From IMG/VR virus record IMGVR_UViG_3300008050_007858, positions 1 through 54,188 of that record: a stretch of DNA of 54,188 nt; one strand, 5' to 3'. Under the pieces are notes generated by a model, which worked only from the letters and a program-made list of their open reading frames with translations, did no database searches and was not told where the DNA came from. A program made the translations under genes and the position numbers. Origin of the DNA: a virus. Its lineage: Duplodnaviria > Caudoviricetes. Positions 35,859 to 37,605 of the stretch are shown here, one piece after another (positions within the stretch are counted from its first letter, which is position 1; every line of letters begins with the position of its first letter).

Positions 35859-36049
35859 TATTCCGTTTCAAACATCTGTTTCTCAGGTTGGATATTCGGT
35901 GATACAGTAGGGGGATTAGTAACGATAATTTCGTTTCCGCTCACATTAAGATCCCAGTCTTTAAGTAAGTCTGTAATGTCTATTTGTTCAGCCAGACACT
36001 TTTGTAAAGTCATCAAAAGAGCGCCGATGGCTTGGTCTGATAATTTCAT
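35858..36049 (-). CDS. 63-aa hypothetical protein
   Basis: Start and stop overlap both neighbours (translational coupling). GGAGG SD. Confidence 0.7.
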   Translation of the reverse strand: MKLSDQAIGALLMTLQKCLAEQIDITDLLKDWDLNVSGNEIIVTNPPTVSPNIQPEKQMFETE

Positions 36050-36456
36050 TTGCTTTCCTCCATTAAATAGTTTTGAACCAACTCGTGGATTGAGCCATCA
36101 ACATTATCTTTCCATGACTCATCTTCTTTTAAAATTCTATCTCGAATATTAGTAGCAGAAATAAATCCGACATCTTGTGGCGGCACATGTTCTATAATCC
36201 CATATCCCACACCTCTACCGTAATTTACACTTGAAATATCCGGGATTGGAATTGCCACCACATCCTCATCCGCATAAACAGCACGAATCATATTGAGGGT
36301 TTGCTCAGTGGTAAAAGGATTCTTTTCATCGGGAGGTATATCCCTCACGGCAATTAAAATAGGTTCATCATTTTTTAGTTGCTGGTCTATAAGCCACTTA
36401 TGTCCATTGTGAAATGGTTGCCATCGTCCCACAAACATTGCTCTTCTCTTATTCAT
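36046..36456 (-). CDS. HxGH (cytidylyltransferase-like) nucleotidyltransferase
   Basis: [18 protein letters not shown], and ISATNIR (SxTxIR) motifs. Start revised to ATG 36456, which overlaps the cysC stop. Confidence 0.85.
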
Positions 36457-37399
36457 TTTTTTCCTTTCGTAAAACATCTTTAACCGTGTTTTTCCATGAA
36501 ATAAATTTATATCCCCGATCATCGATATATATATCGGCAGGGATTTTGAAGTTAGATATCTCATCAAAGTAGTGTCTTAGGTTTTTATCCTGTAGCCAAG
36601 AGTCGATTATAGACGCCGGCCGGGAGGATAGAACCACGAGCCTTTTCCCGGCTTCTTTGAGATGGTCTAGAGATTCTTTTAGGTCTTCCATTGGGTCGTC
36701 ATAGGCATTCATCAACCCCTGAAACCCTTGACTATACTTATGGATCACTCCATCAAAATCTACAGCAATTGTCCTCTTTTTTTCCAGAACATTAACCTCA
36801 TCGACGCTGGAAAGATACTCATTCTTTTCCAGATATTTTATTACCATATTAGCGCACTCTTCTAATGAGCCCCGACAAGTGTTAATGGTTATCTCTGGGT
36901 TAAGTGGTTCCTCATAGGGAGCACTTATACCGGTAAAATTAGGTATCTCTCCACTTCTTGCTTTTTTGTATAAGCCTTTGGGGTCTCGTTTTTCGCATAT
37001 TTCCAGCGGAGCTTTGACGTATATTTCAATGAAATTGCCTCCCATTACTGACCTAGCAGAGTCTCTATCCTCTCGATAAGGGGAGATGAAAGCCGTACAC
37101 ACCAGGCTTCCGGCATCAGCAAACAATTTAGCTACTTCGGAAATCCGCCGAATGTTCTCTTTTCTTTCGTGGGGTTTGAAACCCAGATCCTTATTGAGCC
37201 CCATTCTTACGTTATCCCCATCTAGAAGATGGGTTTGACATGAGCGGCGGTGAAGCAGTACCTCGACTGCGTTGGCTAAGGTAGACTTTCCAGAGCCTGA
37301 TAGTCCAGTAAACCAAAGAACTGCCGGCTTGTGTCCGTTTTTTAATATTTTGTCACGCAGTGCGACTGATGTATTATGAAAATGTAAATTTTTTGTCAT
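36449..37399 (-). CDS. cysC: adenylyl-sulfate (APS) kinase fused to a C-terminal HAD-like domain
   Basis: [45 protein letters not shown]. Then [11 protein letters not shown]...LSSR...ADIYIDDRG (HAD motifs). Confidence 0.92.
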
Positions 37400-37605
37400 G
37401 TGTTCTTAACTCCGAACTTGGATAGATTATACCACATTCTTTCGTGTCCGTAATACAAAAGTATCTTAGTTATTAATTCCACCGCACCTATTTTAACCCC
37501 GATCATTGGATCTCCAGAGATTAACCAACCCAATATAATTGTGTCAAGAGTTCCAACCATGCGCCAACTAATTGCTTTGGCGATATGTCGTTTACGAGCT
37601 ACCAT
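37396..37605 (-). CDS. DUF2061-family small membrane protein
   Basis: [17 protein letters not shown]...[12 protein letters not shown] signature. Confidence 0.85.

Follow-up and report, generated by a model that had tools for sequence, protein, structure and literature searches.

A small HxGH nucleotidyltransferase that accompanies APS kinase in phages and uncultured bacteria: a candidate third type of ATP sulfurylase

A phage that encodes an adenosine 5′-phosphosulfate (APS) kinase raises the question of where its APS comes from. The locus considered here lies in the viral metagenome record IMGVR_UViG_3300008050_007858 (Duplodnaviria; Caudoviricetes), analyzed as the complete record of 54,188 bp (the window; CheckV completeness ∼30%), and comprises three overlapping genes: one for a DUF2061 protein, one for an APS kinase (CysC) fused to a HAD phosphatase-like domain, and one for a small HxGH nucleotidyltransferase, hereafter NT. 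A preliminary description of this DNA had noted the three genes, and they lie where it put them, on the minus strand with overlaps of 4 and 8 nt:

37396-37605, minus strand: DUF2061 gene, 69 aa (PF09834, E 5.6e-21, 75.2 bits against a cut-off of 23.1)
36449-37399, minus strand: cysC-HAD fusion gene, 316 aa
36809-37399, minus strand: APS kinase (CysC) domain, residues 1-197 of the 316-aa protein
36449-36808, minus strand: cap-less HAD phosphatase-like domain, residues 198-316 of the same protein plus the stop codon
36046-36456, minus strand: NT (HxGH nucleotidyltransferase) gene, 136 aa from ATG, with a match to PF01467 (CTP_transf_like)

Two types of enzyme are known to activate sulfate, Sat and CysDN. 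The preliminary description had reported neither sat nor cysDN in the window, and this holds: Sat (PF01747) has zero matches in the 54,188-bp contig, and neither CysD nor CysN occurs among the window open reading frames (ORFs) scanned with the family libraries. Because the contig is ∼30% complete, this absence holds for the contig and not necessarily for the phage itself.

Judged from its genomic context, from which we infer its substrate, NT is probably a sulfate adenylyltransferase of a new type, non-orthologous to Sat and CysD. This function is strongly supported by the adjacency of NT to cysC, by fusions of the two in both orders, by the lack of Sat and CysD in nearly all of the cellular genomes that carry NT, and by complementarity with cysD. 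If NT is a sulfurylase, it is a third type, recruited separately within the HIGH nucleotidyltransferase superfamily. The suggestion in the preliminary description that NT is a minimal ATP sulfurylase is thus supported by comparative genomics as regards the function and falls for the descent, since the fold search and the hhalign profile comparison do not make it a reduced Sat.

CysC from the window matches PF01583 over residues 25-172 (E 7.4e-67, 224.6 bits, cut-off 21.1), as well as NF003013 (273.3 bits, cut-off 163) and TIGR00455 (256.8 bits, cut-off 138.7), and its P-loop, [10 protein letters not shown], is visible in the translation. These matches establish it, at the level of sequence, as an APS kinase, which would phosphorylate the 3′-OH of APS to give 3′-phosphoadenosine 5′-phosphosulfate (PAPS).

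The coupling of NT to this kinase was examined in the 80 best viral loci, which were fetched with NT alone, include several near-duplicates, and were searched by tblastn with the window proteins. An APS-kinase homolog lies beside NT, within 6 kb and on the same strand, in 76 of the 80, upstream of NT in some lineages and downstream in others, and this gene arrangement is far beyond chance; the neighborhood statistics for cysC that the preliminary description had called for bear the association out. In two of the exceptions (L005 and L044) NT sits at the contig end. Some of the partner kinases are short and divergent, with 25-28% identity and a match to positions 4-110 only of the APS_kinase profile. 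DUF2061 accompanies NT in 53 of the 80 loci and the HAD domain in 17.

The two activities are also joined in single proteins. A census of the 150 best cluster representatives at 50% identity, made with HMMs from our alignments A1-A4, comprises 42 CysC-NT and 14 NT-CysC proteins (56/150 fusions, in both orders), one NT-DUF2061 fusion, 79 proteins consisting of NT alone, 12 with at least 80 unassigned residues, and two with split or duplicated NT matches. Among ten long representatives scanned with Pfam, seven contain both APS_kinase and CTP_transf_like, and one more combines NT with DHHA1. Single viral ORFs encode DUF2061 with CysC (L006:4926-5633), DUF2061 with CysC and HAD (L048:3993-5165), a short APS-kinase-like domain with NT (L034:5509-6405), and kinase with NT (L062 and L063); the L006 and L034 fusions are confirmed by Pfam. 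The parts of the module are thus shuffled and fused in many ways. Other fusion partners of NT are a DHHA1 phosphoesterase (P0260, 432 aa), DUF6717 (P0143, 249 aa), and DUF2061 (P0175, 214 aa). DHH/DHHA1 enzymes include phosphatases of adenosine 3′,5′-bisphosphate (PAP), and the DHHA1-NT fusion would fit a sulfation context.

For a view of whole viral records, 50 of the 80 loci were chosen for their longer contigs, and 49 records were searched. Neither Sat (PF01747) nor CysD (TIGR02039) is over cut-off in any of these 49 records with NT, and Sulfotransfer_3 is found in 21 of them. Four of the records are at least 90% complete; these also have no Sat and no CysD, and three of the four encode a sulfotransferase. 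One record of at least 90% completeness (G003) has homologs of all four module domains, with identities to the window proteins of 72% for NT, 72% for the CysC kinase, 76% for DUF2061, and 68% for HAD.

The family extends to cellular organisms, where 509 stretches in species genomes are confirmed to encode it. According to record titles, the lineages are Dadabacteria/Thermodesulfobacteriota, Flavobacteriales and other Bacteroidota, Marinimicrobia, Chitinophagaceae, Nitrospirales, Peregrinibacteria and other candidate phyla, Pelagibacteraceae, and archaea. Matches from Psychrobacter, the weakest of all, cover the N-terminal half only and are probably other transferases. An APS kinase adjoins NT in 46 of the 80 cellular loci retained. 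In the Dadabacteria-type loci, NT follows a gene for a class-I glutamine amidotransferase (L082:4078-4833 and 4860-5408).

The pathway context was assessed in 49 cellular genomes with NT that were searched whole; they come without completeness values and include ∼15 that are single-chromosome assemblies according to their titles. All 49 encode an APS kinase. Sat is over cut-off in one of them (G059, a 588-aa Sat-CysC frame) and CysD in one (G088), and 46 of the 49 have cysC without Sat or CysD.

The relation of NT to cysD was traced in 151 genomes of one order around G069, a Flavobacteriales-type metagenome-assembled genome (CysD counted at E ≤ 1e-40; tabulated by hand). NT is present in 5 of these genomes, APS kinase in 71, and CysD in 105. 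Every one of the 66 cysC genomes without NT has cysD, and the five cysC genomes without cysD are exactly the five that have NT, with Sat absent there too. The chance of such a split is 1 in C(71,5), or ∼1 in 13 million, and its real weight is lower because the five genomes may be one clade. In the usual genomes of the order, cysD begins ∼100 bp downstream of cysC (e.g., G130 and G160); in the five NT genomes, NT occupies the place of cysD on the same strand (e.g., G069, with cysC at 38563-39012 and NT at 38003-38398, both minus), which looks like an in situ displacement of cysDN. NadD is over cut-off in all five of the NT-bearing genomes checked for it, so that NT is not needed there for NAD synthesis.

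By its own sequence, NT belongs to the HIGH nucleotidyltransferase superfamily and is neither a Sat nor a qualifying nicotinamide mononucleotide (NMN) adenylyltransferase (NMNAT). It scores 27.1 bits against PF01467 (CTP_transf_like; cut-off 21) and 33.4 bits against TIGR00125 (cut-off 27.7). Among 5.8 billion clustered proteins, 4,199 relatives fall within the length band searched, the best 120 of which are 126-142 aa long and 67-98% identical; at least 595 IMG/VR stretches encode a relative, and a HMMER scan of 1.84 billion representatives at 50% identity returns 1,526 at E ≤ 1e-3. Aligned with one another, 34 viral members (A1) that are 50-74% identical to the window NT have in common the invariant stretches GRxQPxHxGH, RD, NP, SVNxGRGVGY, E..P, and SA...R. 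The HNGH motif occupies residues 16-19, with H16, G18, and H19 invariant in the 34 sequences; an HxxH motif is common to the whole superfamily and does not discriminate for Sat. On the ATP side, A1 shows no variation at R11, H16, H19, or R105; the mutations in the Methanobacterium thermoautotrophicum NMNAT structures among the Foldseek matches affect R11, H19, and R136. The invariant R11 stands five residues before the first histidine, and the invariant R81 lies within the Gly-rich loop. The AlphaFold (AF2) model of NT has an overall pLDDT of 85.3.

The preliminary description had proposed a structural comparison with Sat on one side and NadM/TagD on the other, and NT falls on the side of NMNAT and phosphopantetheine adenylyltransferase (PPAT). 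NT matches the archaeal NMNAT models NF002243 (E 2.7e-16, 59.7 bits against a cut-off of 127) and TIGR01527 (47.4 bits against 181.2), and these models cover the N-terminal half only, NT residues 5-76 on profile positions 1-80. The best sequence match in the PDB is the MJ0541 NMNAT (1f9a; E 1.9e-7), and a Foldseek search with the model returns archaeal NMNAT (1m8g, 1ej2, and 1f9a) and PPAT at TMq 0.65-0.70. Archaeal NadM (MJ0541, 1f9a; M. thermoautotrophicum, 1ej2) is thus closest to NT and has the same GRxQPxHxGH and SxTxxR-type motifs, but NT is ∼30 residues shorter and carries SVNxGRGVGY in place of the acceptor-binding segment. When HMMER aligns NT to 1f9a, the segment after strand 3, which binds NMN in NMNAT, falls on [10 protein letters not shown], a stretch specific to the NT family, and ∼25-30 residues ahead of the SxTxxR motif of 1f9a have no counterpart in NT. 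NT also differs from archaeal NadM in its partners, which are cysC and sulfotransferases and not NAD genes, with NadD present alongside.

Sat (PF01747; bacterial Sat, fungal MET3, and animal PAPS synthase) shares with NT the HIGH/HxxH superfamily and the proposed reaction. Sat and APS kinase occur as fusions in both orders, and NT likewise adjoins APS kinase or is fused to it in either order. The catalytic domain of Sat, at ∼210 aa and with extra domains, differs from the ∼130 aa of NT. The HNGH of the window NT has the form found in human PAPSS1, and human ATP sulfurylase combines this motif with two arginines that neutralize sulfate, R421 and R522 in PAPSS1 (PMC11697783). No match of NT to PF01747 reaches the cut-off of 24.3 bits, and sub-threshold matches occur on a few family members, namely the G010 NT gene (E 9.9e-4, 14.9 bits), P0137, and P0160. 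The candidacy of NT as a reduced Sat was rejected on the missing PF01747 match, the fold search, and an hhalign probability of 2%. A sugar- or glycerol-phosphate transferase of the TagD/HldC type was likewise rejected, given that no such NCBIfam match was obtained at E ≤ 0.01 and that the family follows cysC and not glycan genes.

CysD is a PP-loop ATP pyrophosphatase fold that works with a GTPase. CysD/CysN performs the reaction that is proposed for NT, and NT takes the cysD position downstream of cysC exactly where cysD is missing; NT is, however, unrelated in fold, and the loci examined contain no GTPase partner. A further parallel is the pair of PPAT and dephospho-CoA kinase (CoaD/CoaE), in which a small HxGH adenylyltransferase is followed by a P-loop kinase acting on the adenosine 3′-OH of the product. 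The logic is that of the NT-CysC proposal, and the PPAT fold is as similar to NT as that of NMNAT, but the acceptor and the kinase family are different, and the pairing with APS kinase is specific to the NT family.

In the route that we propose, the three overlapping genes would form a phage-borne module for PAPS synthesis that feeds the sulfotransferase of a glycan cassette. NT would transfer the AMP of ATP onto sulfate, giving APS and pyrophosphate (PPi), by means of a minimal NMNAT/PPAT-like Rossmann core in which the acceptor segment is replaced by an invariant Gly-rich loop with an arginine (SVNxGRGVGY) that would suit a small anion. R11 and R81 may take the roles of the two sulfate-neutralizing arginines of the human enzyme. 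The fused or adjacent APS kinase would turn APS at once into PAPS, thereby pulling the unfavorable first step forward, and the sulfotransferase would use the PAPS for glycan sulfation.

As third member, DUF2061 is firmly tied to the module through the 53 viral loci and through fusions to CysC (L006) and to NT (P0175). The preliminary description had tentatively connected it with sulfate supply; the linkage to the module is borne out, and no support is seen for that role. DUF2061 is a two-helix protein in which the motifs RH..K....R and YY.HER.WY are conserved, and an alignment of 19 viral homologs (A3) has R6, H7, K10, R15, G40, K47, Y51, H54, E55, R56, and W58 as invariant residues. It may serve CysC and NT as a small helical partner or as an anchor. 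A complex prediction for NT, the CysC kinase domain, and DUF2061 scores 0.00 without controls and is no evidence either way. In the literature on DUF2061, we found nothing that ties it to sulfur. The family is not confined to sulfate contexts, since the copies in Caulobacter (CC_0155) and Shewanella (SO_4740) stand in tables of iron/Fur-responsive genes (PMC3751524; PMC12442407).

The HAD domain is an optional part of the module. The HAD-like tail, residues ∼203-313 of the cysC-HAD protein, belongs by its motifs and by fold matches to HAD proteins to the HAD phosphatase superfamily: the four catalytic motifs DFDGV, SSRP, NxK, and YIDD are all intact and are kept in 12 sequences, and the Pfam scores are slightly under cut-off (HAD_2, 23.1 bits against 23.8; Hydrolase, 22.4 bits against 26.4). 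The domain matches phrog_1238 (E 3.4e-18), which PHROG labels as a heptose-pathway enzyme, and a PDB sequence search returns generic HAD matches only. The model (pLDDT 86) has as its best fold match 2obb, an uncharacterized cap-less HAD (E 6.7e-6, TMq 0.68), and the fold search reveals a weak resemblance to C0 sugar-phosphate phosphatases. The preliminary description had named PPi and PAP as possible substrates. The domain may hydrolyze one of them, most plausibly PAP or another by-product of nucleotide type, and less plausibly PPi.

The window also encodes a likely consumer of PAPS that the preliminary description did not mention, within a glycan cassette:

42941-43711, minus strand: sulfotransferase gene (PF13469, Sulfotransfer_3, E 3e-13, 51 bits against a cut-off of 27)
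37613-51165, minus strand: glycan-building cassette upstream of the module, identified by Pfam matches, with short or overlapping junctions between genes

The sulfotransferase has an N-terminal GSGRTGST loop, visible in the translation, which we take to be the PAPS 5′-phosphosulfate loop, and it is likely the consumer of PAPS. The surrounding cassette contains, by Pfam, members of the UDP-glucose dehydrogenase-like, NAD epimerase, WbqC-like, methyltransferase, and nucleotide-diphospho-sugar transferase families, five glycosyltransferase genes (four of GT1 type and one of GT2), and three ORFs with no family or a sub-threshold match only; the PAPS module sits at its end. The ORFs at 37613-38230 (205 aa) and 44461-45450 (329 aa), both minus, have no Pfam, NCBIfam, or PHROG match, and the 205-aa ORF, directly upstream of DUF2061, has a homolog in none of the 80 viral loci.

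The cellular genomes, too, encode enzymes that would consume APS or PAPS. The five NT-bearing genomes of the order sample have 1-12 Sulfotransfer_3 matches each, several of them on the cysC-NT contig, and a PAPS_reduct gene is absent from both of those examined for it. One cellular locus (L110) has the order cysC, NT, an aldolase, two aldehyde dehydrogenases, an Inositol_P (CysQ-like) gene, and a Wzx-type flippase, the last two 3-4 kb from cysC-NT. By comparison, all three Dadabacteria-type genomes examined, each without Sat or CysD, have a PAPS_reduct gene of CysH size. In a Dadabacteria-type chromosome without Sat or CysD (G050; L162 = G050:C1:645000-658000), an ORF for a PHO4/PiT-type transporter (5058-6065) is followed directly by one for a CysH-type PAPS_reduct (6066-6785). 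The CysP protein of Bacillus subtilis is a sulfate permease of the PiT family, and the two ORFs look like a pair for sulfate uptake and reduction.

Several observations weigh against NT as a sulfurylase. We found no enzyme assay for any member of the family. Its closest relatives in sequence and fold are archaeal NMNAT and PPAT, there is no ATP sulfurylase chain among the 50 best Foldseek PDB matches, and an hhalign comparison of A1 with 20 Sat domains yields a probability of 2.1% over 60 columns, in the stretch from HxxH to strand 3 only. The NT model is weakest, at pLDDT 64, in residues 80-100, exactly where the family-specific loop with R81 lies. NT coexists with a canonical Sat-CysC in G059, with CysD in G088, and with a partial CysD (240 bits, below cut-off) in G089, and in ∼30 Dadabacteria-type loci it lies apart from cysC among housekeeping genes. 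Two related viral fragments, L032 and L033, have NT without an APS kinase in the record, which in L033 spans 34 kb. The genomes are not independent, given that the five of the order sample may be one clade and that many viral loci are near-duplicates, and in a second order (around G080) NT occurs in 1 of 121 genomes, too rarely to repeat the complementarity. Finally, a contig that is ∼30% complete leaves room for a sat elsewhere in the phage or for APS from the host.

Three other explanations were weighed. In the first, NT would be an accessory of CysC, acting, for example, in the reverse reaction, in PAP/PAPS handling, or in the regulation or stabilization of CysC, with APS coming from the host or, in cellular genomes, from an unrecognized source; the incomplete contig, the pairing of NT with canonical Sat or CysD in G059 and G088, and the position of the Dadabacteria-type NT outside any sulfur operon are in keeping with this. 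We consider it unlikely, because it leaves 46 of the 49 APS-kinase genomes, some with CysH or many sulfotransferases, without an APS source, and fails to explain why NT stands in the cysD slot only where cysD is missing; the invariant HxGH and arginine residues further argue for a working adenylyltransferase. A different acceptor, activated by NT for the CysC-like kinase or the glycan cassette, is quite improbable. This might be a sugar or glycerol phosphate, in the manner of TagD/HldC, or another small anion, whose adenylate an APS-kinase-like enzyme could phosphorylate at the 3′ position by analogy with PPAT and dephospho-CoA kinase, and the structural closeness of PPAT, which equals that of NMNAT, would agree with it, as would the position of the module within a glycan cassette, the heptose-pathway PHROG and sugar-phosphate phosphatase resemblance of the HAD domain, and the short, divergent kinases among the partners. 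No TagD, HldC, or RfaE is found, however, among the NCBIfam matches at E ≤ 0.01, the kinases of the window and of all 49 cellular genomes are bona fide APS-kinase matches, and NT tracks cysC and not the glycan genes or HAD, filling a hole that is specific to sulfate activation.

It is very improbable that NT is an ordinary phage NMN or nicotinic acid mononucleotide adenylyltransferase for NAD salvage whose adjacency to cysC means nothing. The archaeal NMNAT/NadM matches and motifs described above are what such an enzyme would have, and isolated phages do carry weakly matching genes of NadM type. Against this, the scores are far under the curated cut-offs and are confined to the N-terminal half, the protein is shorter by ∼30 residues with the NMN-region segment replaced, and the adjacency in 76 of 80 loci together with fusions in both orders cannot be coincidence; NadD is present wherever it was checked, and NT takes the position of cysD. 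Sulfate adenylylation by NT is the reading under which these observations are best accommodated.

All sizeable ORFs of the window are on the minus strand, and the gene junctions of the module, read in the sequence, are tight: DUF2061 ends and cysC begins within a common ATGA (4 nt), the end of cysC runs 8 nt into NT, and the NT stop again shares ATGA, 4 nt, with the start of the next gene. The ORF list also contains a longer NT frame of 173 aa from TTG; the 136-aa form is the likely product because all 33 aligned homologs begin at the ATG position. A promoter and terminator scan of 35500-52500 found 45 and 14 candidates against 47.4 and 13.9 in shuffled sequence, and is thus uninformative on operon structure. 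PHROGs and Pfam give few matches elsewhere, among them a baseplate wedge gene, a muramidase, and a PIN-PhoH gene. Four giant ORFs, all minus, lie at 13099-22665 (3188 aa), 26407-31998 (1863 aa), 7914-12149 (1411 aa), and 4719-7889 (1056 aa). The largest has Laminin_G_3 as its sole match in the Pfam scan, the only scan applied to it, and the other three have zero matches in the PHROG scan, likewise the only one applied; they are presumably structural or fiber proteins of an unclassified myovirus-like phage. A 222-aa ORF (52032-52700, minus) matches zinc-metallopeptidase-type models at 22 bits, under their cut-offs, and is probably a small metallopeptidase-like protein.

No cultured relative is available, since a blastn search of 50,697 phage records with the 1.56-kb region gives zero matches and tblastn with NT against phage isolates gives distant matches only (16 records, all <60% identity, the best 37%). 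In siphophages of Xylella, Xanthomonas, and Stenotrophomonas (Salvo, Sano, Bacata, and others; KF626668.1, NC_042344.1, LR743524.1), the C-terminal part of one gene is 31-37% identical to NT, and these genes are annotated as ‘kinase,’ ‘adenylylsulfate kinase,’ or hypothetical protein. phrog_10255 matches the window CysC and also the window NT, and the siphophage genes could be candidate kinase-NT fusions in cultured phages. Among the viral metagenome loci, the NT copy of L033 (5998-6396) is 56% identical to that of the window and lies among unrelated phage genes (an SLT transglycosylase and unknowns).

Viral cysC has been described before; it is transcribed in lakes and has been read as part of assimilatory sulfate reduction (PMC10914622). 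The auxiliary metabolic genes in that study are likewise phage-encoded cysC, and its main text describes neither the NT and DUF2061 partners nor a link to sulfation, with zero occurrences of cytidyl, adenylyltransferase, or sulfotransferase (PMC10914622). In a literature search that left subscription journals and supplements largely outside, we found no account of the NT-cysC pairing or of a third type of ATP sulfurylase.

Taken more broadly, we lean toward the view that the ∼130-aa NT is the smallest known ATP sulfurylase and a third class of this enzyme, derived from an NMNAT/PPAT-like adenylyltransferase, which together with APS kinase, and often with DUF2061, activates sulfate in many uncultured marine and freshwater phages as well as in lineages without Sat and CysDN (Dadabacteria, some Flavobacteriales, Marinimicrobia, Chitinophagaceae, candidate-phyla bacteria, and some archaea), and that viral cysC auxiliary metabolic genes are self-sufficient PAPS factories for glycan sulfation and not boosters of host assimilation. 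Its members are abundant not only in phages but also in several uncultured lineages of bacteria. If the assignment is true, it would supply the step that genome-based metabolic models now miss in abundant marine lineages, which appear to have APS kinase, (P)APS reductase or dozens of sulfotransferases and yet no means of making APS, and a sulfurylase of 130 residues, of which many natural variants are already fused to APS kinase, would offer a compact way to regenerate PAPS enzymatically. Furthermore, because viral cysC travels with its own candidate sulfurylase and with sulfotransferases, its reading would change toward phage-directed sulfation of cell-surface or virion glycans.

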